A DNA stretch of 64,000 nucleotides from an uncultured Veillonella sp. (GTDB lineage: Bacteria; Bacillota; Negativicutes; Veillonellales; Veillonellaceae). A program made the translations under genes and the position numbers. The DNA lies in NCBI GenBank assembly GCA_963518505.1, contig CAUQIT010000012.1:6858-70857 (forward strand), given 5' to 3'. Below the pieces are notes generated by a model that had not been told where the DNA came from, did no database searches, and was given only the letters and a program-made list of their open reading frames with translations. This document shows positions 43,999-57,800 of this stretch, piece by piece; the stretch's first letter is position 1, and the number at the start of each line of letters is the position of its first letter.

Positions 43999-44931
43999 TT
44001 ATGCCAACCCTGCCATCGATCGCATGACCAAATCAATATCCCTATTTTCCAACTCTTGAATGATATGGATATATGTTTTCTGCGTTGTGGTCATGCTTGC
44101 ATGACCTAACCGTCTAGCAACACTGGCAATGGATCCCCCTGCAAACAGCAACAACGATGCATGGGTATGTCGTAATCCGTGAACAGAAATAACGGGAATC
44201 CCTAGATTCTTGCAATATCTCTCTAACCTATCATTTACCGTTGAATTGTACACAGGACCTTTCACAAAGATTGGTTTATCCTCTGGCAAATCTCTGATTA
44301 ATTCAGAAAATTTAATAATCGTTTGCCAATCCAATTGAATCTTTCGCACAGAGGAGTTATTTTTCGTAGGCAAAAATCCACCACTCCCTTTGTAATCCCA
44401 AGTTTTATTCACAATCAGTGATTGATGTGAAAAATCAAAGTCTTTTGGCGTCAATGCTAACGCTTCTGAAAAACGCATGCCTGTCTTGGCAATAATAAAA
44501 ATAAACCAGTCCCAATTAATTTCTGGCGTAAGATGTAAATGTACCAACAACGTGTGCAACTCGAACTGATTTAAATACTTAATCTTCTTTTCTCTCGGGG
44601 TCTTTCCCTTAATGATTGCTTTTCGTGTCGGATCCCGATCAATGAAGCCCTCATCCACCGCATCTAGTACAGCTGCCTTCAATTGATGGTGAAAGTCCAT
44701 CGTTGTTTGTCGTTCATGATATACTGCATAGTCGTTTAATAATTGTTGATAGGTAATTCGATTTAACTCTGAAAGTCGTAAGTCAGGCACCAATTTCTGT
44801 AACCATACCAACGTAATCTCGTACTTCTTCATGGTTACCTCTCGAATAGCCCCTTCCTTGTACATCCGAATCCACCGTTCATAATACTTGCAAAATAATT
44901 CCGATCCTTCCTCAGCCTTTACCATATTCAC
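43999..44931 (-). CDS. Tyrosine site-specific recombinase (phage-integrase family)
   Basis: The catalytic residues appear as TGMRFSE (R), HGLRHTH (H-x-x-R), LGHAS (H) and TYIH (Y). Confidence 0.9.
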   Translation of the reverse strand: MNMVKAEEGSELFCKYYERWIRMYKEGAIREVTMKKYEITLVWLQKLVPDLRLSELNRITYQQLLNDYAVYHERQTTMDFHHQLKAAVLDAVDEGFIDRDPTRKAIIKGKTPREKKIKYLNQFELHTLLVHLHLTPEINWDWFIFIIAKTGMRFSEALALTPKDFDFSHQSLIVNKTWDYKGSGGFLPTKNNSSVRKIQLDWQTIIKFSELIRDLPEDKPIFVKGPVYNSTVNDRLERYCKNLGIPVISVHGLRHTHASLLLFAGGSIASVARRLGHASMTTTQKTYIHIIQELENRDIDLVMRSMAGLA

Positions 44932-45026
44932 ACCTCTTCATTTACATGACAACATAGAAATGGCTCTTATACATATCTTACTCGCATATTTCAAAAAAAG
45001 CATATACGGAGAGATATATTGTGTAT

Positions 45027-45665
45027 CTATCGTGTCATGTGAAAGTTGGGGAAATACTTACGCTGATGAAGGGTGATGAGGTTGTCGATGTTACTTAACG
45101 ACTCTCCAATTTTAGCTTGTTCATCATATGACTTTGGGAAAAATACGTATGTATCTTTAATAGCTCCCCTTGAAATTGAAGTCACCTTAATTCCTTGCAT
45201 TAAGGGAATTAATTGTTGATGATACGCATTAGAGTTTATATAGTACCCCATATATTTAGGTGCATACTTTTCTTTAGGACGACATGGAATCGTATGTAAA
45301 CCAGATAATACTTTTATACCGCTAGTTCCTATGATTTCGCTACATTTTCCAACTATTGAATCTTCTGCTGTATCAGCGATGATAATATCACCATCTTTTA
45401 ACAACGATCCAGTAAACCTTTTTACAATTTGCTCATCCTTTATGTATGGTAATTTATCAATAGCTACATCGATAAAATTCCCATATTTAATCAATACATC
45501 CCCATAGTGAACATTTTTTACACTCCCTACTTCAAAGTCCAATTCAGACCTTGATAATGTATTATTTTGCAATGTATCAAAGACATCAGCAAACTTACGC
45601 TGTTCCCAAGTATTTGTATGGAAGTAATAAAAAAAGAAAGCCGATACACAATCATCAGCTTTCAT
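45027..45665 (-). CDS. Truncated HsdS: a single TRD (target-recognition domain) cassette, probably a silent donor
   Basis: Its 212 aa hold one TRD bracketed by the conserved WEQRKF and NLITLHQRK segments. The ends outside these segments do not resemble HsdS. Confidence 0.8.
   Translation of the reverse strand: MKADDCVSAFFFYYFHTNTWEQRKFADVFDTLQNNTLSRSELDFEVGSVKNVHYGDVLIKYGNFIDVAIDKLPYIKDEQIVKRFTGSLLKDGDIIIADTAEDSIVGKCSEIIGTSGIKVLSGLHTIPCRPKEKYAPKYMGYYINSNAYHQQLIPLMQGIKVTSISRGAIKDTYVFFPKSYDEQAKIGESLSNIDNLITLHQRKYFPNFHMTR
45056..45086. repeat. 31-bp repeat, copy A (encodes the NLITLHQRK segment)
   Basis: acttacgctgatgaagggtgatgaggttgtc is identical to 48930..48960 and differs by one base from 49527..49557. 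All three copies are in direct orientation. Confidence 0.9.
45592..45610. repeat. 19-bp repeat, copy A (encodes the WEQRKF segment)
   Basis: aacttacgctgttcccaag is identical to 49409..49427 and in direct orientation. Confidence 0.9.
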
Positions 45666-45795
45666 TCCTAAATTATACCATACCTAATAAAACTATAGAT
45701 AGCACAATACTATCACTAGTAACATTCCACTCCCTTTTCATTTCTTCCACAAAGTAGTATTAACAGCCAACATTCACTGTCAGTACTAGTTTTTG
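45666..45795. repeat. ~130-bp direct repeat, copy 1 (downstream of rpn, abutting the hsdS-cassette start codon)
   Basis: The first 49 bp are identical to 46756..46804. The remainder is similar, including a hairpin followed by TTTTT. Confidence 0.85.
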
Positions 45796-45925
45796 TGAGT
45801 AATATAAAACCTAGATATATATCACAAATTCAAAAGCGATACAACTAGGTCTGACCCATTGTATCTCTTTATTCTTGAAAATAAGTTTTATAGCTATGCA
45901 AATAAAAGAATCTAATTCTTACTAT

Positions 45926-46741
45926 TTATAGTAATGCATTAGCCCGTCCAATCTCTTTTATTTGCTCCACTGTTAATTTTGTAAAGCGAGCAATCATTTC
46001 TAGCGACAACTTTTCTTGCAACATCTGAATGACAACTTCAGCTTTACCTTGAGCAAGTCCTTCTGCAACGCCCTCGGCCACCCCCTCTTTCCAATATTTA
46101 TAATGATCCATGGATAACATCGAGTATTCCTCCTTCCACGCTTCACAATGCTTGACCTCATATACAGCATTATCAATATCTCGCAGCAACTCATCTGTTG
46201 CTTCCTGTCCATCAATGTAGTCTAAAAACGCTTGCAACGGTTTTGACACATCATTCTGCGTTCCCTTTGTACTTAAAAATAACTTTGTAGCACCATCGTT
46301 TAAGGCAATATCATGGTCTTCGATACAAACGTTTTTGAAGGTATACTTATGACGATTGCCAGTAAACACTGGGAATGTACAAATAAAAATTACATAGGAA
46401 TCATTTAATGTCGTATACTTCTGACCTTTTTGAATATGATACATATCTAAAATACTTTGATAAAACCGTGTACGTTTTACAAGTTCTTCCATGTCCTTGC
46501 TAGTTTGCATTTCAATGTTAAACACCGTTCCTTTATCATCATTTACAAACACATCAAGACGCACACTTTTAGAATCCCACCGTACATCAAGATTTTTTTC
46601 TTCATGAATATATACAATATCTTTAATCGAAATATCTAACAACCGTTCTAATACAGCCTTACAAATGTGCTTCTTTAACATCACTTTCTGAAAGATAAAA
46701 TTGTCTTGGAACGTCAGTTCATCAAATGACTTAATGTACAT
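45926..46741 (-). CDS. Rpn-family recombination-promoting nuclease / putative transposase (PD-(D/E)XK)
   Basis: The N-terminus reads LTFQDNFIFQKVM...LDV...FNIEMQ, which is typical of the YhgA/Rpn family. The helical C-terminal tail carries a GVAEGVAEGLAQG repeat. Confidence 0.8.
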   Translation of the reverse strand: MYIKSFDELTFQDNFIFQKVMLKKHICKAVLERLLDISIKDIVYIHEEKNLDVRWDSKSVRLDVFVNDDKGTVFNIEMQTSKDMEELVKRTRFYQSILDMYHIQKGQKYTTLNDSYVIFICTFPVFTGNRHKYTFKNVCIEDHDIALNDGATKLFLSTKGTQNDVSKPLQAFLDYIDGQEATDELLRDIDNAVYEVKHCEAWKEEYSMLSMDHYKYWKEGVAEGVAEGLAQGKAEVVIQMLQEKLSLEMIARFTKLTVEQIKEIGRANALL

Positions 46742-46755
46742 GGAATACCTTCCTT

Positions 46756-46886
46756 TCCTAAATTATACCATACCTAATAAAACTATAGATAGCACAATAC
46801 TATCTACTAGCAGTATTCCATATCTTTTTTATTTTTCCCATAAACTAGCACTAACAGTCAACATTCACTGTCAGTGCTAGTTTTTA
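46756..46886. repeat. ~130-bp direct repeat, copy 2 (upstream of rpn, downstream of hsdM)
   Basis: See copy 1. On the minus strand it contains an extended -10 (TGGTATAAT) just upstream of the rpn RBS. Confidence 0.85.
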
Positions 46887-47124
46887 CACACCAGCTTTTT
46901 TATATTTTATACCCTGTTCTATACTCAATATATTAAAAAGATCCTTAATGTATTGTTAGCGTTAGGATTATCACACACACAAAATAAAAAGCCTAATGTA
47001 TTGATATTTGCGAAAGCTCTTTTCGTTAGGCATTTTCATTTGACTATTTCACAAGCAAAAACGATGCGACCAACCCTCACTAGTCGCATCATTTCCCTAT
47101 TATTTAACTATGTCAAAAAACTTT

Positions 47125-48726
47125 CTACAGTTTCACTCCCAACAGTGCTAACTGTTCTGCTATTTCTTTTTCCAATGCTGCAATGTCACGGTTATCTTGT
47201 TCAATCATGCGATTGATTTCATCAAGATCCAGTTCTTCCTCTTCTTCAAAGGTGTCCACGTAACGAGGGATATTCAAGTTATAATCATTCTCCTTGATTT
47301 CCTCTAAGCTTGCTACATGCGCGTATTTCTCTACATCCACACGGTTCCGGTAGGTGTCGATAATCTTAGCAATATTTTCTTCACTCAAGTTATTTTGGTT
47401 TTTCCCTTTTTCAAACTCGTTGCTCGCATCGATAAACAACACATCACGGTTCGTACGGTTCTTTTTGAACACTAAAATCGTGGTAGGAATGCTCGTGCCA
47501 TAGAACAAGTTCGCTGGTAATCCAATGACTGCATCCAAGTAATTTTTCTCGATGAGGGTCTCCCGGATTTTACCTTCTGCAGCGCCACGGAATAACACAC
47601 CATGTGGCAATACGATGGCCATCGTTCCTTCTGTGTTCAAATGGTACAAGCTGTGCAAGATGAAAGCATAATCTGCTTTGGACGCTGGCGCCAACTTGCC
47701 ATAATCGCTGAAACGAGGGTCTTTCAATTTACTTTCATTATTGTCCCATTTTGCAGAGTACGGAGGGTTCGCCACCACCGCATCAAAGGATCGCGGACGG
47801 TCAATGCCATCGTGGTCCACACCATCTGGCCAATCACTTTCAAGGGTATCCGCATTATGCAAATTCATGTTGTTATAGGTCACGCCGTGCATCATGAGGT
47901 TCATGCGCGCCAAATTGTACGTCACCGTATTCAGCTCTTGCCCGTAAAAGCTCACCGCCCCTTGACGGGAACCATCAGGAATCTCGTTACGCACGGTTAG
48001 CAGCAAGGAACCAGACCCCATAGTCGGGTCATACACCGTGAAAGTGTCCTCTCGGTTCTCCAAATTCGTTGTCACCAGTTTCGCCAAAATGATACTGACC
48101 TCGTGAGGCGTGTAGAATTCGCCACCTTTTTTACCCGCATTGGCTGCGAACTTGCCGATTAAATATTCATAGATTTCACCTAGAATATCTTTGCCCCTTT
48201 CATCCTTGTACTCGATTTCATCGATTTTGGACACCACCGCATTAAGCGTTTTAGAACGAGCTGTAAGCGTAGAGCCCAAACCAGAATTACCAAGATTTAC
48301 GTAGTTAAAAATACCTCTAAAATCCATAGCAGCCGCCTTATTCCGCTCAGTATTTTTATTAAAGTTTTCAAACATACGTTGATAATCACCTGCAGATACA
48401 AGACCATCATAGATGTTTTTAGTTAATGTTGCCCATGTATCTTCTGGATTGATAGCATATCCTAAAGAACTTGATATATCATCAAGGCAGTCTTCTAATC
48501 CTTCCTTCTCTACCAATGCTTTATACAGTTCATTAACAGATTTCCCCTCAGAAGAATCTACCAAACCGTTGTCCACCAAGTAATCTTCTTGATGGTTTGA
48601 CAAATACTTATAAAATAAGAAGGGAAGAATATAATCTTTGAAAGAACTTGCATCCATTGTACCACGTAAATCATTGGCAATCGCCCATAATTGATTAGAA
48701 ATCGTTTGTGCTTTTATATTTGCCAT
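47125..48726 (-). CDS. hsdM: Type I restriction-modification system methyltransferase subunit
   Basis: Has an HsdM N-terminal domain, the SAM motif DPTMGSGS and the catalytic NPPY (VVANPPYS). Confidence 0.95.
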   Translation of the reverse strand: MANIKAQTISNQLWAIANDLRGTMDASSFKDYILPFLFYKYLSNHQEDYLVDNGLVDSSEGKSVNELYKALVEKEGLEDCLDDISSSLGYAINPEDTWATLTKNIYDGLVSAGDYQRMFENFNKNTERNKAAAMDFRGIFNYVNLGNSGLGSTLTARSKTLNAVVSKIDEIEYKDERGKDILGEIYEYLIGKFAANAGKKGGEFYTPHEVSIILAKLVTTNLENREDTFTVYDPTMGSGSLLLTVRNEIPDGSRQGAVSFYGQELNTVTYNLARMNLMMHGVTYNNMNLHNADTLESDWPDGVDHDGIDRPRSFDAVVANPPYSAKWDNNESKLKDPRFSDYGKLAPASKADYAFILHSLYHLNTEGTMAIVLPHGVLFRGAAEGKIRETLIEKNYLDAVIGLPANLFYGTSIPTTILVFKKNRTNRDVLFIDASNEFEKGKNQNNLSEENIAKIIDTYRNRVDVEKYAHVASLEEIKENDYNLNIPRYVDTFEEEEELDLDEINRMIEQDNRDIAALEKEIAEQLALLGVKL

Positions 48727-48876
48727 AAAATCTCCTTTGTATATCTCTCTTATATCTAATTTTTTATATTGTGTTTTAGTTTTATGAAAGCCTCTTAAAG
48801 TAGCTCTACAGGCCTTACTGTATCAGACTCCCTATATATTACTAGTTAATTTGTGGGAAGTATCTCACTACCATCA

Positions 48877-50109
48877 CTAGACAAACATTTGCTGAAGAAG
48901 AGCCTTCTTCTGAAGTTGTAAGTGTTCTAACTTACGCTGATGAAGGGTGATGAGGTTGTCAAACTTAGATATAAATTCTCCAATTTTTGCTTGTTCTTCT
49001 ACTTTAGGTACCAAGATCTTCTCTTTAAGAAAATCAGCTGCAACAAGATTTGTCATCATTGTAGTCTTTTTCGTACAGCGTGATAATATTTTCCCCATGA
49101 TTGGTTCATAATTAATAAAATATTTCCAATAGTTTATATCATATTCAGCAATAGGTTTAAAGACCTCAAAAACATGAGACACAATCCCATCACCAATTGT
49201 ATTTTCTACAAACCTCCCGTAAGAGTACTCTTTACTTTTATTTCCCTCAAATGCTATTTCTCCATATCTAAATATATTATATGTCTTTAAGTATTCTTCA
49301 GAAGATACCTTTGCATCACTTTTATAATACATGCTAGCTACAGAAATAACTTTATCTAACTTAAAGCTCAAATCATTCTTCTCAGTAACTTTTTCATACA
49401 ATTCACTGAACTTACGCTGTTCCCAAGCATCCGTAAATCCTGGAAAACGAAGTTCTGGAAATTGCTCTCCATTTTTCGGAAACAATTTTTGAAGTAAAGC
49501 TTTTTTCTTCAATTTTAAGGATTCTAACTTACGCTGATGAAGGATGATGAGGTTGTCGAAATCAGTTAGTACCAAGCTTATTTTCTCTTGTTCTTCTTTT
49601 GATGGTATATATAATTTAAACTCTGCATACTCTTTAGAGTTCACCCCTGGCTGCCCCGATCTTTGAGACGTGATTTTTATAAATAAATCATAGTTTTCAG
49701 TTAATGTATTCTGATAAACAAATTTTGCATTATTAGATGGGTTTACATGCCCTCTAATTAAGAATCCTGCAAAATATAAATCTCCATCATTAATATCATA
49801 AAGATATGTTTTACCAACACTTGCACCAGTTCTAGCAAATAGAATATCACCTTCTTTTAGCTTATACATTTCTGTATCAGCATCCTGAAAATCTATTTTT
49901 GGCGTTGTCAGGTTTGACTTCAAAAACTTATGACTTACATCGTCAATATCTGTGATACGAATATATTTATGCACCCCATCATACTCTGTCGCTGCAGCAT
50001 TTAACCCATACTCAAATCGGTCAATTACGTCCCCCAGCTTACGCAGTTCCCAATCTCCTGTAAACCCAGGGAATCTTAATTTCGGCACCTTATGTTTTTT
50101 TCCGCTCAT
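48877..50109 (-). CDS. hsdS: Type I restriction-modification system specificity subunit (two TRDs)
   Basis: Shows a duplicated architecture. Each TRD is flanked by W-E-x-R-K and L-I-x-L-H-Q-R-K-L-E conserved segments. Confidence 0.93.
   Translation of the reverse strand: MSGKKHKVPKLRFPGFTGDWELRKLGDVIDRFEYGLNAAATEYDGVHKYIRITDIDDVSHKFLKSNLTTPKIDFQDADTEMYKLKEGDILFARTGASVGKTYLYDINDGDLYFAGFLIRGHVNPSNNAKFVYQNTLTENYDLFIKITSQRSGQPGVNSKEYAEFKLYIPSKEEQEKISLVLTDFDNLIILHQRKLESLKLKKKALLQKLFPKNGEQFPELRFPGFTDAWEQRKFSELYEKVTEKNDLSFKLDKVISVASMYYKSDAKVSSEEYLKTYNIFRYGEIAFEGNKSKEYSYGRFVENTIGDGIVSHVFEVFKPIAEYDINYWKYFINYEPIMGKILSRCTKKTTMMTNLVAADFLKEKILVPKVEEQAKIGEFISKFDNLITLHQRKLEHLQLQKKALLQQMFV
48930..48960. repeat. 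31-bp repeat, copy B (3' boundary of hsdS TRD2)
   Basis: Identical to 45056..45086. Confidence 0.9.
49409..49427. repeat. 19-bp repeat, copy B (5' boundary of hsdS TRD2)
   Basis: Identical to 45592..45610. Confidence 0.9.
49527..49557. repeat. 31-bp repeat, copy C (central conserved region of hsdS)
   Basis: Differs by one base from copies A and B. Confidence 0.85.
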
Positions 50110-50123
50110 TATATCACCATTCT

Positions 50124-53100
50124 TTATCCTTCACTGACATACTCATTCGCAAATGCATAGATGGCCTTAATTACCCCTGTTCTATATGCAAGCAAGCCCA
50201 GTTCTACTACTTTGGGATCTTTTGCCTTGCTCCTATATTCCTTTCCCGCTACCTTTTTCAATTCCGTCATACGTCCAGCATCATCGAAATCCTCTTTACC
50301 ATACTCATGACGATTAAACATATCTAAAAGTTCCTCATTAGTAATATGATCAATAATCCCCCATTGTTCCCGGAATTTATAAATCTTGTCATTCACAAGA
50401 CCTACATTAACAGTTTCAACGATATCCAAGCAATCTTTCAATTTTACTGGATATGTAATATTGCTATTAACAGGTGGGTAATCTCCATTATAAATTTCAG
50501 TCGCAGCCTTATTAATTTGTTTAGCCAAGTGCCTATCTTCTAAAGATAATGCAAAATTATTAATTTTTTCAAGGTATGAGTCAGCATCTATTTTTCGATT
50601 TTCATGGACCGCGTTCATTAAGCCCTCAATAAGTTCTGTCAGATAATCGTAATTTACTTCTACCTCTTTTACATGAACCATACGAAGTTCAATATGTGTT
50701 ACTGGAATACTTCGTGCATCTGCTAGACGTTCTTTTAAATCATTCACCAACGATGTAGTTAGCATCTCTTCTTCCTCTAGGGTCATTCCTACCATACGGA
50801 TTAAATCCTCTGGTTTATCATAATCATAACCTATGAGTGTACCATCAAGAACCTCTGCATCATATTGCTTTAATTTTCTCATTCCACTATTGTACAAACG
50901 CATAACATTAAGCATTTCTTCCTGTTTAGCTTCACTACGTGGCACTTCTGTAAAATGATCTGTCATATCTCTTAATTGGTTTACAATATATTGAACCTTT
51001 ACCAATTGTTCTTTAAATGACTCAGCCAAAATACCTGCATCTACGAGTTCTTTTGGATCTGCTTCATCCCCATCAATAAACGATTCTTGTACGTTAGCTG
51101 AATCTCTATTTGCATAGATTCCCAATGCCTCGTTCATATGCTTTTCGTTCTGAATAGGCCAACGATAATTAATAATACGACCAAAATCCTTTTTACCTAT
51201 ATTAGCAATTCGATTAGTTCTAGAATAAGCCTGAATAAGAGCAGCCCCTTTTAATGTTCGATCCACATATAAAGTATTTAATTGAGGTGCGTCAAATCCT
51301 GTTAATAATTGTTCCACGACAATAACTATATCCAAAAATTTTCCATCGCGAGCAGTCCGATTCAATCGACTCCTTACATCCTCCATATACGCGGCATCAT
51401 CTTCGATAACAAAACTAGTCCCAAACATTTCATTGTAATGTTTCATAGCGCGCTTCAATCCATCATTTGCTTCAATTTGCCCGTCATTATGGTTTGTACT
51501 TTTTCGATAAGTAATAGCAACCTTTAAAGTAAATTGTCCAAGCTTAGCTCTCTCTTTATTTACTTTTTGAAATTCATCAAAATACATCAGTGCCATAGGT
51601 ATACTAGGACTATTACCGCCTACATGTGTAGTAAACAAAGCATTGTATAAACCATCACAAGAACGATTGCGCCAGTGCTTAAAGATATCATCCACAACTA
51701 ATCGAACATGTTCTTCATTATTGTCATAAAAGCTAGGTGTTAGCATATCATCCATATCATCGGAAGTCATATTTAAAATACGTTCACGTATTTCTTCATC
51801 AGTCCAATATGGATAACATTGACGATAAAAGTTCGGAAGATATTCTTCCTTCATTGTTACTTCATCAATAGTCGTTTCAAAATCCACTTTAAATCCTAAG
51901 ACATTTTTATCTGATATAGCTTCACGAATAGTATATGCATGTAGTATATTTCCAAAAACCTCATGTGTTTTACTGCAAACGCTACCTCCCATATTATCAA
52001 ACATAGGTGTTCCAGTGTAGCCTACCCAGGCAGCGCCTTTAAATACCTTTTGTAACTCCTCAAAGCTGTCACCCCCTGTAGAGCGATGGGCTTCATCCAC
52101 AATAAAAACATAATTCTTCTTCGGTAAAACGAAATCTTTACGTTTAATAAGGTTTATTAGTTTTTGTACAGAAGTAACAATAATACCATTTCCTTTATCG
52201 CCCAGTTTTTTCTTGAGTTCTTTTATATTTTCCGTGCCACCTATCATCTCATGTTTCCGCCCATCCATATCAATACTACCTGTGGGATCATAGGCCTTAT
52301 AATTTTCTTCTGTTTGTCTTGTTAAAGCAATACGGTCTACTAAAAATACAACTTTATCTATATTAGGCATTCGACTTGCTAACCACGCTGTTTTAAAGCT
52401 AGTAATTGTTTTTCCTGATCCAGTAGTATGCCAAATATATCCCAATCTATTAATCGGCGCTTCAAAATCAGCAATTCTCAATGCTTCCAGCACTTTTTTT
52501 GTGGCATATACCTGATATGGTCGCATAACTTTCAGTACTTGATTGTTTTTACTTCCATCAAGAATTGTAAATTGCGTAGACATCTGATGGGCCATTGGAA
52601 TTGACAAAAATATGTCAGTAAATACTTTCCAATCTCGTACTACCTTTCCATCCTCTGGATCTTGCCAATAAAAAGCAAAGTCCTCATTAAACATTTCATA
52701 CGTAGTATTTGCCATATATTTAATTTGTGTAGGTTTCATTGCTACAAGAATTTGTACGGTGGAAAATATATCACTATATTGTCTTTCCTTAATATACTCT
52801 TTAATCTGATTTAATGCAGATTCTATTCGTTCTTTAGATCTTTTTTCTTCTATTTGAATGATTGGTAACCCGTTAATAAGTAATGTCGTATCAAATCTTC
52901 TATCTTGTCCATCTGGACTCTTTTTAGGACATTGTATTTGGGTCACTACCTGATATATGGTATTTCCAGCACCTATTTGTTTTTGATCAAAAATTGTCAG
53001 TATTACATGCCGTCCATCATCTAAGTCTACCTCTACTTCAGATTTCCCATTAACTCCGTATAAAAATTGCCCTGCCTGATAAGGTGTATATAACTCATTA

Positions 53101-53381
53101 ATCACTTTTTGTACTTGACCAAATTCTGTATCACTTAAAGGTACATTCAACACATCTTGATTTAATCTGTATAAAATATCTCGAAAGTTTTTCCATAAAG
53201 CTTCTATTGTTTTAATATGTGGCTCGTACTTCCATAGCTTTCTACGGAACATCTTTGTTGAATCATAATTAAAATCTTTATTTCCCCCTTCACCGATTTG
53301 ACTAATGTTCCCCCCCGTAGTAAGACGCTCAAGCAACAATGATTCAAATACTACTTCTTTCATGCCTACTGTGCATTCCAT
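50124..53381 (-). CDS. hsdR: Type I restriction enzyme endonuclease/translocase subunit
   Basis: A 1085-aa protein with SF2 motifs HTTGSGKT and VDEAH. Confidence 0.93.
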   Translation of the reverse strand: MECTVGMKEVVFESLLLERLTTGGNISQIGEGGNKDFNYDSTKMFRRKLWKYEPHIKTIEALWKNFRDILYRLNQDVLNVPLSDTEFGQVQKVINELYTPYQAGQFLYGVNGKSEVEVDLDDGRHVILTIFDQKQIGAGNTIYQVVTQIQCPKKSPDGQDRRFDTTLLINGLPIIQIEEKRSKERIESALNQIKEYIKERQYSDIFSTVQILVAMKPTQIKYMANTTYEMFNEDFAFYWQDPEDGKVVRDWKVFTDIFLSIPMAHQMSTQFTILDGSKNNQVLKVMRPYQVYATKKVLEALRIADFEAPINRLGYIWHTTGSGKTITSFKTAWLASRMPNIDKVVFLVDRIALTRQTEENYKAYDPTGSIDMDGRKHEMIGGTENIKELKKKLGDKGNGIIVTSVQKLINLIKRKDFVLPKKNYVFIVDEAHRSTGGDSFEELQKVFKGAAWVGYTGTPMFDNMGGSVCSKTHEVFGNILHAYTIREAISDKNVLGFKVDFETTIDEVTMKEEYLPNFYRQCYPYWTDEEIRERILNMTSDDMDDMLTPSFYDNNEEHVRLVVDDIFKHWRNRSCDGLYNALFTTHVGGNSPSIPMALMYFDEFQKVNKERAKLGQFTLKVAITYRKSTNHNDGQIEANDGLKRAMKHYNEMFGTSFVIEDDAAYMEDVRSRLNRTARDGKFLDIVIVVEQLLTGFDAPQLNTLYVDRTLKGAALIQAYSRTNRIANIGKKDFGRIINYRWPIQNEKHMNEALGIYANRDSANVQESFIDGDEADPKELVDAGILAESFKEQLVKVQYIVNQLRDMTDHFTEVPRSEAKQEEMLNVMRLYNSGMRKLKQYDAEVLDGTLIGYDYDKPEDLIRMVGMTLEEEEMLTTSLVNDLKERLADARSIPVTHIELRMVHVKEVEVNYDYLTELIEGLMNAVHENRKIDADSYLEKINNFALSLEDRHLAKQINKAATEIYNGDYPPVNSNITYPVKLKDCLDIVETVNVGLVNDKIYKFREQWGIIDHITNEELLDMFNRHEYGKEDFDDAGRMTELKKVAGKEYRSKAKDPKVVELGLLAYRTGVIKAIYAFANEYVSEG

Positions 53382-53384
53382 CTC

Positions 53385-53963
53385 TTACACCCCCTGTAAT
53401 TGTGCCACTCGCAATGTATACATATTATGTGCTACTCGTTGTTGCAAAGAACGCACTCGCAATTCCTTGTAATACACATCGCCGATTAATCGTTGTATTT
53501 CGAGCGTTGGTAACTTCGGCAGTTCTATGTCTTTCAATAGTTTTAAACTGTACCGAATGACTTGGCTACCTTGCAAGTTTTGTTGGAACTGGCGTTTGAT
53601 ACTTGGATGTTCATTGATGAGGAACATCATGTATTTACAGTCAATTTGTTTAGACGTAGGCACCATGCGCACATAGTTCTGTGTGAAAATATATCCTTCA
53701 TGATCTTTACCGACGATAGTCGCTTCCCCAGAGATCGTACTGAATAACAAATCGCCTTCTTCTAGTACATCTCCTGTGAAAGTCGTTTTAATTTGTTTCC
53801 GATCTTGTCGTTCACCTGGCACGCCGTGTATATCTTCATAGAGTTCATTTTGACCATATAAGGTATATATTTTTGCCTCTCCTGTAACGTCTTCATCTAA
53901 GCGATATTGAGATACCCCTGTATTGCTATGAAATAAGTCTTTGATACATACCATAGAAACCAT
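53385..53963 (-). CDS. Half-size HsdS-like protein (one TRD plus a conserved helix)
   Basis: Carries GDLLFS and an IELPKLPTLEIQRLIGDVY segment resembling the HsdS conserved region (I.LP.L.EQ..I). Its stop lies 3 nt before the hsdR start. Confidence 0.65.
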   Translation of the reverse strand: MVSMVCIKDLFHSNTGVSQYRLDEDVTGEAKIYTLYGQNELYEDIHGVPGERQDRKQIKTTFTGDVLEEGDLLFSTISGEATIVGKDHEGYIFTQNYVRMVPTSKQIDCKYMMFLINEHPSIKRQFQQNLQGSQVIRYSLKLLKDIELPKLPTLEIQRLIGDVYYKELRVRSLQQRVAHNMYTLRVAQLQGV

Positions 53964-53982
53964 CTCCTTTTCTCTAATTTTG

Positions 53983-54034
53983 CATTTTAAAAAATTACCG
54001 TGATTAACTTATGGCTTAAGTATACACGGTAATT
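53983..54034 (-). terminator. Rho-independent terminator after the HipA-like gene
   Basis: A 10-bp stem aattaccgtg / cacggtaatt, followed on the minus strand by TTTTTTAAAA. Confidence 0.5.
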
Positions 54035-54105
54035 CTAAAAAATGCAAGTATGTTATTGTAATTTTTAAAAATTATTTATACAGTTTTTTCTTTTTTCCTC
54101 TTACC

Positions 54106-55056
54106 TCATCTACCATCTCTTTGATTAATATCCTTTTGGTAATTTAGTTCATTTTTTAATGCTTTTTGAATAATCAATCTATTTCTGTTATCCAATAATT
54201 GAGTGTAAAATTCTTTTTCTACATGACTTATATAAGGAATCTCTCTAATTATTGCATGAACAATTTCGCTGTTATATTTTGGTGCTATTCGCTTAATTGC
54301 TTCCGCTATATCGTTTGAACACTCATAATTATTTTTTCTATTATCAACTAATATATGGTAATAATTCATTCTAGCATTGTTAAATTTAAATATAGAAACA
54401 GGATCATTTTTAGAAATTCTATTAAACACACTAGAATCATCAAGAAACTTCTTTTTCTCGTCTTCACTTAAAATCGGATATAAACTAGCCCCACAATCAT
54501 ATATTGGTGACATTCGTCTTATATTAGTTTCTTCATTAAATATATAGCCCCAATTATTATGATGTCTATCTGGATTTCCAATTAATGCATCTGCAACAAA
54601 CATATCCCAAAAATATCGTTCCATCTCATCAGTTTTTACAACTTCTTGTTCTTTAATAAATTGTAATGTTTTTTCTAAGGATACGCCCTTATTATCGCTA
54701 TTAATATGGTTTACCTTATTTTGTAATTCTAAGAATGAGCCTAAACTTTCTTCCTTTGACAAGAAATCTTTACATGCAACAACTAAATCATTATTATATG
54801 TGCAAAGAAATACATCTTGAACATCTAATCCAAGAGATTTAATGACTTTACATGAAATATACTCTGTAATACAAGAGTTAGCATAGCTTGTATCTCTGTT
54901 ATTTTGTCTAACTCTCTCAGGTAATTTCAATAAGTAGTATTCACCATTATCTCGTACAGAGTATTTTTTACCTGCACCACCATAAGAACGGTAACTTATT
55001 TCAATTCCATCTATATTAGAAAAATTCTCCATTGAGATTCCCCCAGTAATATTCAT
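54106..55056 (-). CDS. Short HipA-like Ser/Thr kinase (HipA C-terminal domain only)
   Basis: Carries DALIGNPDRHHNNWG (catalytic loop), SPIYDCG (Mg-binding Asp) and a YGGAGKKYS Gly-rich loop. At 316 aa it lacks the HipA N-terminal subdomain. Confidence 0.8.
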   Translation of the reverse strand: MNITGGISMENFSNIDGIEISYRSYGGAGKKYSVRDNGEYYLLKLPERVRQNNRDTSYANSCITEYISCKVIKSLGLDVQDVFLCTYNNDLVVACKDFLSKEESLGSFLELQNKVNHINSDNKGVSLEKTLQFIKEQEVVKTDEMERYFWDMFVADALIGNPDRHHNNWGYIFNEETNIRRMSPIYDCGASLYPILSEDEKKKFLDDSSVFNRISKNDPVSIFKFNNARMNYYHILVDNRKNNYECSNDIAEAIKRIAPKYNSEIVHAIIREIPYISHVEKEFYTQLLDNRNRLIIQKALKNELNYQKDINQRDGR

Positions 55057-55255
55057 TTCTTAATTCATCAGCTTCTTCTTGACTAATAACTCGATCGCAC
55101 CAAACCGAATTGATGACACTATAGATATTCATAATTTGCATTTTAAACTCAATTCTATTATTCATAGTTCGATCCTTTAAATATGTTTCTTTAGCTGTAT
55201 TTAAAGCAGCGATTTCTTCTCTTAGGAAACGATAACCCTCTGAATTTGTTTTCAT
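55016..55255 (-). CDS. Hypothetical 79-aa protein overlapping the HipA-like gene start (candidate antitoxin or regulator)
   Basis: An ORF in operon position. I recognise no HTH. It shares a C-terminal motif with the 90-aa ORF at 57405..57677. Confidence 0.5.
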   Translation of the reverse strand: MKTNSEGYRFLREEIAALNTAKETYLKDRTMNNRIEFKMQIMNIYSVINSVWCDRVISQEEADELRNEYYWGNLNGEFF

Positions 55256-55304
55256 AGTACCCTCTTTTCTATCAGCACGTTTGATGATTATAAACCCATA
55301 CCTC

Positions 55305-56021
55305 TCATCTAGTGTTCCATTCTAACTGTAATTCAGAATTGTTAATAATCTTCATTCTAGTCTGTTCTTCGTTCGACAACCGTATTCCCATATCTGGTAA
55401 TCCTTTTATATCTAGATCAGATAATAGGTTCATATATAGTTGTCTATCACTTTTATTAATAATAATAGGAGCAATCCCTTGTTGCAGACAAGAATGAACA
55501 ATTAAGGCACGCCCAGTTCTTCCATTGCCATCAGAAAATGGATGTATTCGTTCAAATCGCAAATGCTGCTCCATGATAACTTCTATTTTTTCTTCCACAG
55601 TATTAGAGAGCTGAAGTCTATATTCTAACGTATCACACCAGTTTTTTAATTCTGATTGCACTAAATAAGGTTCTGTAGTTGTAAAATCAGCCCCTATGAT
55701 TATATTATGAATCGTTTTAAATGCTCCTGCATCTTCTCTAATATCTTGTAATAAATAACTATGAGTATCTTTTATTAGTTCAATAGTAATTTCCTTGGGA
55801 CAATGATCTGTTAAAAATCCCATATATTTCTTATAGTTTTTGACTTCATAAAATTCACGTTCATGCATCGCTCTAGGAATGATACCATCTAATAAAATAC
55901 ATTTAGCTTCATATTGTGTCAGTGTATTCCCTTCAATAGCGGTACTATGGTGAGCCATTCTAACTAGCATATCATCCGCATAACTACATGAAAGTTTCAA
56001 GCTAATCATCTCCTTAATCAA
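55305..56021 (-). CDS. Fic-family protein (class II, with an N-terminal inhibitory motif)
   Basis: The Fic motif reads HPFSDGNGRTGRAL. The inhibitory (S/T)xxxE(G/N) motif appears as STAIEGN near the N-terminus. Confidence 0.88.
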   Translation of the reverse strand: MIKEMISLKLSCSYADDMLVRMAHHSTAIEGNTLTQYEAKCILLDGIIPRAMHEREFYEVKNYKKYMGFLTDHCPKEITIELIKDTHSYLLQDIREDAGAFKTIHNIIIGADFTTTEPYLVQSELKNWCDTLEYRLQLSNTVEEKIEVIMEQHLRFERIHPFSDGNGRTGRALIVHSCLQQGIAPIIINKSDRQLYMNLLSDLDIKGLPDMGIRLSNEEQTRMKIINNSELQLEWNTR

Positions 56022-56124: not shown

Positions 56125-56979
56125 CTAGATGGTTGCATCTGTTTTAGACATCCACAATTTTTCAATTCCCAATCCAATAGCCACGCTTAGTGCAATAGCG
56201 CAGATTTCAAATATGGACGGTGTAATATATACTAATGGGCTACCTGTGAAAGCTGGCAATGCTTTCCCTGCCCAAGCTTTCACAATTTCTGGGATATATC
56301 CACCGAATAGGATATGCGCATTGGTTGCCACCCACCATACTGCCATGACTACGATAGCAGTCACACGAGGCCACAATGCTGTGCGACGTGGATATAAATA
56401 TAATACCATGCTACCGATAGTGGTCAACATCATAAGCACTACCCCGATGTATAGGCTAGCAATGAGTCCTGCAAAGCCCTGCGCATCTAACGATGCTTGA
56501 ATGATAGGATCCTCTAGATTGAGGTACATCACATCCCCTAAAAATAGCATCGGCAATGGCAACGCATAGGTACAAATATTCAATACTGTATCGATAAAGT
56601 AATGACGTTCTTTACGTGCCATCCAACAATCTAATAGTTTTGCTGTACCGATCATGAGTGCAACTGCAACTAGCATAGTCAATATCCAAACTAGCATGAT
56701 GTAGATTGGTTCATTTGGCAAAGTAAAGGGCAACACCCCATTGCCAAAGAAAAAGAATAAATTCCACCACAACCAAGCGTATGTATAATGGCCTTTCCCT
56801 AAGTGAAAGTCAAATTGCCCCGCCAGTCTTGGTACTGCTTTCAGCCCCAAAGGAATCCCCAAGGAGGCAATGACAAACATAATAATGCTAGATGTGTCAA
56901 ACTGCCCTAAGCTAAATACCAAGCTGAGCGGAATAATCCAGAGCATGGACCAACTGTAAAATTTTATATAACTTCTCAT
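56125..56979 (-). CDS. Hypothetical polytopic membrane protein
   Basis: Has roughly eight or more hydrophobic segments. I prefer the ATG at 56979 (AGAGGTG RBS, TAAtATG junction). I recognise no family. Confidence 0.6.
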   Translation of the reverse strand: MRSYIKFYSWSMLWIIPLSLVFSLGQFDTSSIIMFVIASLGIPLGLKAVPRLAGQFDFHLGKGHYTYAWLWWNLFFFFGNGVLPFTLPNEPIYIMLVWILTMLVAVALMIGTAKLLDCWMARKERHYFIDTVLNICTYALPLPMLFLGDVMYLNLEDPIIQASLDAQGFAGLIASLYIGVVLMMLTTIGSMVLYLYPRRTALWPRVTAIVVMAVWWVATNAHILFGGYIPEIVKAWAGKALPAFTGSPLVYITPSIFEICAIALSVAIGLGIEKLWMSKTDATI

Positions 56980-56980
56980 A

Positions 56981-57376
56981 TTACACCTCTGTATTCTTTC
57001 CACCTGCTAATGCCAATACTAAGGACAAGGTCACTTGGCAATACATGATGATGGCAAACACCACATCACGACCGATAGTCGGTAAGTTCCACAACCAAGA
57101 TAAATCTAAATTGTTGAACACCAAGAATGTACCCCCTTGTACTAGTGCCCAAGCTACTACGTACACGCAAATCGGTATTCTACGAGCCTTTGGACCAAAT
57201 CCACTTTCACTAGAACGTAAGTAGAAAATAGGAATTAATAAGGACAACACTTCATAGCTGACACCCGCTGCCATGGCGCTCATCCCCGTATGAATCGTGT
57301 AGGCCCCTAGGGGAATCAATATAAAAAATATACTCATATACATCGTGCGTTGCACTACGTCTTGTATCGTTGACAT
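56981..57376 (-). CDS. Hypothetical membrane protein (about four TM segments)
   Basis: A hydrophobic ORF coupled to the downstream membrane ORF. Confidence 0.55.
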   Translation of the reverse strand: MSTIQDVVQRTMYMSIFFILIPLGAYTIHTGMSAMAAGVSYEVLSLLIPIFYLRSSESGFGPKARRIPICVYVVAWALVQGGTFLVFNNLDLSWLWNLPTIGRDVVFAIIMYCQVTLSLVLALAGGKNTEV

Positions 57377-57404: not shown

Positions 57405-57677
57405 TCATCGATTTTTTCTATGCATAATCGCTGTATCTAACAGCTTTTTCTTCCTTTTCTCTATATATAGCTTATAAAAATCTTTATTATCACCAAATAA
57501 TTTTTCTCTTAAATAATTTGCCTCATCAATTGATATTTCATAATTATGTTGAGCTATATTGATAGATCCATAGAGTTCATCTAGCCATACATCAATATAA
57601 TCACCATTTTCCAGAGCCTTTTTCAGACCTTGTATATCATTATATAAATAAGCAGGCAACAATTCTTCATTAATCAT
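57405..57677 (-). CDS. Hypothetical 90-aa protein, paralogous to the ORF at 55016..55255
   Basis: Both share the pattern Y..IN.......IS..EA..LR....G. It has a basic C-terminal tail. Confidence 0.5.
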   Translation of the reverse strand: MINEELLPAYLYNDIQGLKKALENGDYIDVWLDELYGSINIAQHNYEISIDEANYLREKLFGDNKDFYKLYIEKRKKKLLDTAIMHRKNR

Positions 57678-57773: not shown

Positions 57774-57800
57774 AAAAAAGCATCCTTAAGGATGCTTTTT
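57774..57800 (-). terminator. Rho-independent terminator after the P-type ATPase gene
   Basis: A stem built from aaaaagcatcc, a ttaa loop and ggatgcttttt. T-runs lie on both strands. Confidence 0.7.

Follow-up and report, generated by a model that had tools for sequence, protein, structure and literature searches.

A predicted three-helix protein encoded with a CtkA-family kinase beside a Fic gene in Veillonella: a candidate toxin–antitoxin-like pair

Kinases of the HipA superfamily are a model for toxin–antitoxin (TA) biology, for persistence and, lately, for phage defence, and their classification rests on the partner protein. To our knowledge, CtkA of Helicobacter pylori is the sole studied member of the CtkA family. 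Here we describe a CtkA-family kinase gene, the small gene that precedes it and a neighbouring Fic gene in a stretch of 64,000 nucleotides (the window) from an uncultured Veillonella sp. (contig CAUQIT010000012.1, positions 6,858 to 70,857). The closest described systems are HipBA, HipBST and the short-kinase families of Hip main clade XI, namely HipG/HipR, HipM/HipP, HipI/HipN and HipJ/HipS (Gerdes et al., 2021; PMC8262856). The families in that survey are defined by their partners: helix-turn-helix (HTH) proteins, HipS, the Stl-like HipR, the resolvase-like HipP and the HipS-HIRAN protein HipN (PMC8262856). HipR is an HTH two-domain protein, and only five hipRG modules are listed (PMC8262856). 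A kinase is coupled with a HIRAN protein in PDC-M03 (PMC13245101), and phage defence by HipA-family kinases that have non-HipB partners has been validated (PMC13092281), lending plausibility to the defence role proposed below.

The small gene of the window encodes a 79-residue protein. We propose, with a probability of roughly 0.6, that this protein and the kinase form a TA-like or abortive-infection module in which the partner is of an undescribed class. The pairing itself is real, and more general than a first, sequence-only reading of the window had supposed. All three genes lie on the minus strand and are co-directional: the Fic gene (55305..56021), the 79-aa open reading frame (ORF; 55016..55255), which follows Fic after 49 nt, and the kinase gene (54106..55032). 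The longest kinase ORF begins at 55056. A Shine–Dalgarno sequence (GGGGGA) is located 6 nt upstream of the second ATG, at 55032, and homologues with 87–89% identity are annotated as proteins of 308 aa; for these reasons the kinase most likely starts at 55032 and comprises 308 aa. The overlap between the two genes noted in the sequence-only reading is real, with a likely length of 17 nt rather than 41. The rest of that description (three co-directional ORFs, the 49-nt gap, a terminator) was borne out with small corrections only.

The kinase aligns well with H. pylori CtkA (E-value of 1.8e-56 in a phmmer search of PDB sequences, residues 15–292 matching residues 15–287 of PDB entry 3AKJ, chain A), to which it is approximately 37% identical. 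In the same sequence set the match to HipA is weak (E = 0.09) and covers HipA residues 178–340, the catalytic core. A Pfam scan detects the HipA_C domain (E = 3e-15) and no Couple_hipA domain. The sequence retains each of the 38 residues that are invariant in an alignment of 24 family members, including G19, K36, D155-R156-H157, N160 and D179; the Gly-rich loop and the catalytic motifs (GN.DRH..NWG and DCG, here GNPDRHHNNWG and IYDCG) are kept. The generic short-kinase models of PADLOC (PDC-M03A) match with an E-value of 1.2e-37, and a homologue of 38% identity is named 'CtkA family protein' by one database source. The gene has a ratio of nonsynonymous to synonymous substitution rates (dN/dS) of 0.16–0.17. 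As the alignment spans the full length of CtkA, the term 'truncated' is misleading, and the identity as a truncated HipA-like or HipT-like kinase given in the sequence-only reading was rejected in favour of a full-length, CtkA-family Ser/Thr kinase (a short form within the HipA superfamily). Ser/Thr kinase activity and autophosphorylation are predicted from this family membership.

The partner was less readily placed. No match to the 79-aa ORF was found in Pfam, NCBIfam, PADLOC, PHROG or PDB sequences, and the first three of these returned no HTH family, in line with the earlier statement that the protein has no HTH. A word-index homologue search with this sequence alone retrieved Veillonella proteins only (81–97% identity). 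The lineage-specific orphan status that this would suggest is wrong, as bridging sequences and profiles link the protein to a wider family. A hidden Markov model (HMM) built with the orf79-type sequences (those resembling the 79-aa ORF) left out recovers the 79-aa ORF with an E-value of 3.2e-10 (34.8 bits) among the 479 ORFs of the window, and matches just one other, a 90-aa ORF further upstream (E = 1.2e-22). Direct comparison of these two ORFs with BLASTP gives nothing, their kinship being visible only through the bridging sequences and profiles; BLASTP of the 79-aa ORF against ORFs upstream of unrelated kinase genes gives E-values down to 1.6e-5. A motif, Y.(S/G)(S/V)IN......(I/V)(S/T)..EA..LR..Y.W., is common to the 79-aa ORF and to a 62-aa protein of other Veillonella loci (see below). 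The 79-aa ORF is a real gene under purifying selection (dN/dS of 0.11–0.23). It is, as judged from these profiles, a divergent member of a widespread and apparently undescribed family of partners of CtkA-type kinases, built on an unnamed domain of about 65 aa. At 90% identity the family has no fewer than 700 clusters, and at 50% identity approximately 790; the few that bear a name are all called 'hypothetical protein', and a Pfam domain is found in none of the clusters.

The structure of the 79-aa protein was predicted with AlphaFold2 from a 57-sequence alignment. The model is a three-helix bundle (helices at residues 6–27, 31–53 and 59–71) with a predicted local distance difference test score (pLDDT) of 89 and a predicted template-modelling score (pTM) of 0.77. 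Foldseek found no significant match to the model in the PDB; the best was the flagellar export chaperone FliS (E = 0.21). The comparison with HipS and HipB suggested in the sequence-only reading thus shows no likeness by structure or by sequence, and a HipB-like or HipS-like identity for this all-α protein was rejected on these grounds.

To assess the pairing of partner and kinase, the kinase alignment was scanned against 185,579 genomes, one per species, which returned 80 loci, 79 of them testable. Most are from Firmicutes, and H. pylori, Campylobacter, a Treponemataceae metagenome-assembled genome and two Bacteroidota are also represented. At 76 of the 79 loci the kinase gene is immediately preceded, on the same strand, by exactly one ORF with the partner domain, and the gaps are mostly between −17 and +18 nt. 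A partner was also directly upstream of the kinase at ten of 14 loci on viral contigs, and relatives of the pair occur on plasmids and on an integrative and conjugative element (ICE). The distance matrices of partners and kinases are correlated (r = 0.85; 0/2000 in a Mantel test). The suggestion that the 79-aa ORF may be a new kind of antitoxin or adaptor for the kinase holds in so far as the protein is a dedicated partner, conserved beside homologous kinases; it is not peculiar to this locus. Natural fusions of partner and kinase were sought among the long kinase matches, in which the extra residues proved to be C-terminal tails and not partner domains. Three loci have a different arrangement, the first two being exceptions to the pairing. 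At L127:1501-2216 what comes after the partner-family gene, overlapping it by 4 nt, is an unrelated ORF of 166 aa. On a Megamonas plasmid (L110:2585-3969) the kinase, a divergent one of the CtkA type, has before it a 136-aa protein with no partner domain. At the third locus (L074:82-1473), a CtkA-type kinase has upstream of it a 463-aa ORF that combines a different HipA-like kinase domain (..MDRHTKNYG..) with a C-terminal partner domain; this ORF may be a true fusion, or else an artefact of assembly or of a frameshift.

The arrangement resembles that of a type II TA operon, with a small upstream gene, translational coupling and frequent fusion of the upstream protein to an HTH. A Cro/C1 HTH (PF13443, E-values of about 1e-9 to 1e-10) precedes the partner domain in 40 of the 76 partners, and 33, the window copy among them, consist of the domain only. 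The HTH raises the alternative that the pair is a signalling switch, in which the small protein, in its long forms an HTH repressor, is a substrate or regulator of the kinase and phosphorylation controls the transcription of neighbouring genes, for example Fic or the restriction–modification system. A kinase–repressor pair that regulates adjacent immune operons from an upstream position, CapK–CapS, is documented (PMC13373217), although CapK is an anti-sigma-type kinase and is unrelated to HipA. In the window the module does lie between Fic and a type I restriction–modification system, with no terminator ahead of the kinase stop, and H. pylori tolerates CtkA without a partner, as a switch would allow. 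However, the 33 domain-only partners have no DNA-binding domain with which to act as repressors, and the neighbours vary from locus to locus, hence there is no constant operon to be regulated. We consider a switch possible but fairly unlikely.

The history of the Veillonella locus provides a further line of evidence. The 90-aa ORF matched by the HMM (57405..57677, minus strand) is the scar of a second, paralogous partner–kinase module. Some Veillonella strains have an extra upstream module, in which a small protein of 62/83 aa precedes a kinase, kin2, that is 32% identical to the first kinase (kin1). In the window ORF the 62-aa partner gene runs in frame into what is left of a deleted kin2, its last ~26 codons, and the tail, DFYKLYIEKRKKKLLDTAIMHRKNR, matches the kin2 C-terminus. 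At two loci (L005 and L006) a partner and kin2 are found at the position of the scar; kin2 is intact in L006 (294 aa) and is called at 261 aa in L005, where the first 33 codons are gone and the Gly-rich loop with them. In L010-14, kin2 has been cleanly removed and the partner kept. The two types of partner are themselves diverged (39% identity over 28 aa, E = 0.035, between the 62-aa L010 partner and the L006 homologue of the 79-aa ORF, which is 86% identical to the window copy). The divergent kin1 goes with the divergent orf79-type partner, and kin2 with the 62-aa partner, these two being the mainstream forms. The locus once held two diverged pairs, in the pattern expected of insulated paralogous pairs.

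Loss of the kinase with retention of the partner is not restricted to kin2. In L005–L009 kin1 is deleted between window positions 54994 and 54097, from 22 nt past the partner stop to 9 nt past the kinase stop, and the 79-aa gene is intact though most of Fic is lost. In unrelated bacteria the partner gene is followed by a C-terminal kinase fragment (L118 and L123) or by no kinase (L114 and L127). A partner is missing from three of the 79 kinase loci, compared with four of eight partner-seeded clusters that have no intact kinase (Fisher p = 0.001), the eight being a small sample picked for long contigs. This asymmetry, in which the kinase is often lost with the partner kept and the reverse is rare, fits a kinase that would be costly or toxic without its partner; it is an indirect indication from small samples. 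The repeated loss also suits a costly toxin better than a regulator, which argues against the signalling switch. At one of these loci (L123:1501-3264) the orphan partner and a kinase remnant of ~67 aa lie ~1 kb from a canonical hipBA-type pair (HTH_3 and Couple_hipA/HipA_C). In four other Veillonella loci (L001:6001-6440, also L002-L004), tandem orphan partners of 79 and then 60 aa are present without a kinase or Fic, between a DedA/VTT gene and a metallophosphatase/PNPase region.

The third gene of the cluster encodes a Fic-domain protein (PF02661, E = 3.5e-17) of 231–238 aa, depending on which start codon is used (TTG 56021, ATG 56009 or TTG 56000, the last of which has AAGGAG 9 nt before it). 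The translation contains the active-site motif HPFSDGNGRTGR, which fits HxFx(D/E)GNGRxxR. N-terminal to it, at residues ~24–32 of the 238-aa ORF, is HHSTAIEGN, in which STAIEG fits the class II inhibitory motif (S/T)xxxE(G/N) in the same chain as the Fic core; the earlier assignment to the self-inhibited class II was correct. The PADLOC model PDC-S04 matches the protein over nearly its full length (E = 2.5e-76), and the NCBIfam SoFic model scores 33.6 bits against a cut-off of 550. The protein is 43% identical to the Fic protein of the H. pylori tfs3 ICE.

Fic-family genes are present within 5 kb of the kinase at six of the 78 testable genome loci outside Veillonella (~8%; L025, L026, L051, L086, L093 and L094) and on two plasmids. 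We estimate, with no matched random-locus control, that this frequency is well above that of a random 10-kb window. In L025 the Fic gene overlaps the kinase stop, and in the H. pylori tfs3 ICE (L026) it is ~1 kb from ctkA. On the Campylobacter fetus plasmid pCfviMP1 (L109:2754-4741) the order is partner (68 aa), kinase and Fic with 1-nt gaps, and on the Megamonas plasmid it is VbhA, Fic, VbhA, the 136-aa protein and the kinase. The Fic protein of pCfviMP1 has a degenerate active-site motif (YFEDCNKRTAR) and, going by this motif, may not be an AMP-transferase. The Fic proteins near CtkA-type kinases are only 22–43% identical to each other and belong to different classes, from which it follows that the association arose repeatedly. 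The linkage of Fic to the kinase is, on these gene neighbourhoods, recurrent but facultative. In H. pylori the two genes, ctkA and fic, serve as alternative cargo of a single variable ICE region, which also carries AbiE-type TA genes (PMC5536186; PMC12443045). CtkA and the nearby Fic protein at L026 (L026:4908-7703), where no partner gene is present, share an end of ~25 residues (...NEY..PKRRR); this shared tail has already been described in the literature as a putative type IV secretion system (T4SS) signal.

These data bear on whether the three genes encode one system. The transcription unit appears to end in a hairpin at 53980-54047 (minus strand; −28.9 kcal/mol on RNA folding, z = −7.67, none of 200 shuffles being equally stable) with a U run 3′ of its G+C core. 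Folding thereby confirms the terminator that had been placed at 53983..54034, which a simple terminator scan overlooked because the loop is long. That scan found no terminator-like site between Fic and the partner gene or ahead of the kinase stop, and Fic is probably co-transcribed with the partner–kinase pair. A single three-component system with two cooperating effectors, in which the kinase or its partner would free Fic from auto-inhibition or Fic would AMPylate the kinase or partner, would account for the co-directional genes, the 49-nt gap, the strong hairpin placed only after the kinase and the several independent associations at the six loci, on pCfviMP1 and on the Megamonas plasmid. 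The two-effector module of the sequence-only reading stands to this extent, that Fic does co-occur with such kinases elsewhere. Against it, ~92% of the partner–kinase loci have no Fic within 5 kb. Both gene order and Fic class vary (class II in the window, class I accompanied by VbhA in Megamonas and, in C. fetus, a degenerate motif), the H. pylori genes are alternative cargo, and a single-gene PADLOC candidate matches the whole length of the window Fic. We regard such cooperation as highly doubtful, and Fic is probably a neighbouring, separable module in a TA/defence hot spot. A role for the 79-aa protein as antitoxin of Fic was likewise rejected, since its domain follows kinases (76/79) and not Fic (~8%).

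In the proposed mechanism, the Veillonella-like chromosome carries two modules side by side in a hot spot for defence and TA genes. The translationally coupled 79-aa protein and kinase would work like a type II TA or abortive-infection system: the small protein would bind the kinase and hold it inactive, and should the partner be lost, titrated or displaced, as might happen in phage infection, the kinase would phosphorylate an essential cell component and growth would stop. If HipA and HipT are a guide, an aminoacyl-tRNA synthetase could be the target. In the long-form relatives (about half), the N-terminal Cro/C1 HTH would autoregulate the operon; the window copy is HTH-less. The second module, the self-inhibited class II Fic enzyme, would act independently of the first. 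The sequences show how the genes are built, which families they belong to, that the pairing is conserved, that selection is purifying and that decay is asymmetric. Physical binding, toxicity of the kinase, its neutralisation, its target and a role in defence are what we infer from the locus, and for arrest by a toxin and neutralisation by binding the coupling, the HTH fusions and the asymmetric decay offer indirect support.

Several observations weigh against this mechanism. Binding and toxicity are deduced from sequence. Adjacency alone would yield correlated partner and kinase trees, the partner-seeded sample is limited to eight clusters, and the kin1 deletion in L005–L009 is a single shared event rather than several. 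The tandem orphan partners could equally mean that the domain has a role independent of any kinase. The H. pylori CtkA locus (L026) has no partner gene, and neither do two other loci (L064 and L087), which means that a kinase on its own need not be lethal. H. pylori CtkA has also been described as a host-directed kinase that is dependent on the Tfs3 T4SS (PMC5536186), and a PDC-S04 Fic protein gave no defence in one native-host deletion test (bioRxiv 10.1101/2024.12.20.629700).

The H. pylori precedent suggests a further explanation, in which the kinase is an exported effector directed at a host or competitor, with the small helical protein serving as chaperone for its secretion. Genes for small helical chaperones are often found beside those of effectors, and the best fold match of the 79-aa model is to an export chaperone, although the match to FliS is not significant. 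The secretion dependence is reported for the H. pylori protein, which is itself the member without a partner. Its KRRR tail, reported to be specific to H. pylori and thought to be a T4SS signal (PMC5536186), is absent from the window kinase; further, there are no secretion genes in the window flanks, and the HTH fusions in half of the family are ill-suited to a chaperone. This explanation is extremely improbable. A much broader form of the TA-like mechanism may also be considered. The three-helix domain would be an antitoxin of a new class that neutralises kinases throughout the CtkA family and possibly senses phage as well, and H. pylori CtkA would be an exapted TA toxin, now without its partner and with a secretion tail added. 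The recurrent recruitment of Fic would then reflect functional cooperation of phosphorylation and AMPylation in one defence module, and the orphan partners would provide immunity against incoming kinases. We consider this combination distinctly unlikely.

The surroundings of the cluster are as follows. Two predicted membrane proteins of 292 and 131 aa (56125-57376, minus strand) separate the two partner–kinase modules. Neither has a match in Pfam, NCBIfam or PADLOC, and both genes are kept in all of the locus variants examined. Upstream of the scar, at 57775-57800 and directly after a P-type ATPase gene, is a hairpin with a perfect 11-bp stem that is terminator-like on both strands and probably marks the start of the transcription unit running down to the kinase. 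Directly downstream of the hairpin-terminated kinase unit is the type I restriction–modification system (47125..53963, minus strand; Pfam and PADLOC matches), composed of a half-length HsdS (53385-53963), HsdR (50124-53381), HsdS (48877-50109) and HsdM (47125-48726), all on the minus strand. The half-length hsdS gene at 53385-53963 is one of two extra copies, the other being at 45027-45665, and a tyrosine recombinase gene (43999-44931) and a PD-(D/E)XK transposase-like gene (45926-46741) are nearby. This gene set (43999-53963) suggests specificity switching; inverted repeats of at least 30 nt, a sign of an hsdS shufflon, were not found.

The partner family is newly identified and absent from Pfam, NCBIfam, PADLOC, PHROGs and the PDB, and it is almost obligatorily coupled to CtkA-type kinases in Firmicutes, Campylobacterota, spirochaetes and Bacteroidota, on plasmids and on prophage-like contigs. 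The CtkA family thereby gains a testable cellular role and a candidate inhibitor, and the virulence-associated CtkA of H. pylori is placed as a partner-less exception in a family of intracellular two-gene modules. The population variants of the Veillonella locus constitute a natural deletion series.

The window locus was compared with the known systems. The closest known kinase is CtkA itself (JHP0940; PDB entries 3AKJ, 3AKK and 3AKL), which belongs to the same kinase family, aligns over its full length with the catalytic motifs kept and, in the tfs3 ICE, has a Fic gene nearby as in the window. CtkA lacks an upstream partner in H. pylori and has the C-terminal KRRR tail, whereas the window kinase has a partner and ends in ...NQRDGR. 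The window Fic protein shares with PDC-S04, SoFic and other class II Fic proteins an active-site motif of canonical form and, within one chain, an inhibitory motif N-terminal to it; PDC-S04 is an unvalidated candidate, and the match of the window Fic to SoFic is weaker than that to PDC-S04 and far below the NCBIfam cut-off.

The clade XI families resemble the window pair in having short HipA-homologous kinases (279–321 aa), bicistronic operons and unusual partners, but the partners there are Stl-like, resolvase-like, HipS-like or HipS-HIRAN proteins. Neither CtkA nor Helicobacter is mentioned in the Hip survey (PMC8262856), and the CtkA-type motif is absent from the part of its Table S1 that we examined, a part that excludes clade XI. 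HipR might correspond to the long form of the partner. Membership of PDC-M03 was rejected, as its partner is a HIRAN protein and none of its B models matches the 79-aa ORF or seven of its relatives at E ≤ 1.

The similarity to HipBST of Escherichia coli O127 lies in a short kinase without N-subdomain 1 and a small non-HTH protein as the presumed neutraliser. The window pair differs from it in consisting of two genes, with no third small HTH gene in the operon, and in having a three-helix bundle in place of a HipS-type mimic of the HipA N-subdomain; searches of PDB sequences and folds gave no HipS or HipT match for the pair. In comparison with HipBA of E. coli K-12, the window kinase is shorter (308 aa, without the N-terminal subdomain 1 of HipA, which has ~440 aa), and its partner lacks an HTH and is formed by a ~65-aa helical domain that is not found in HipB. 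The features that define HipBA, HipBST and PDC-M03 are thus missing from the window pair, and it was assigned to none of them. What it has in common with HipBA is a HipA-superfamily kinase encoded downstream of a small, tightly coupled gene, a Cro/C1 HTH like that of HipB in the upstream protein of 40 of the 76 relatives and, as we propose, the logic of a kinase toxin with a neutralising partner.

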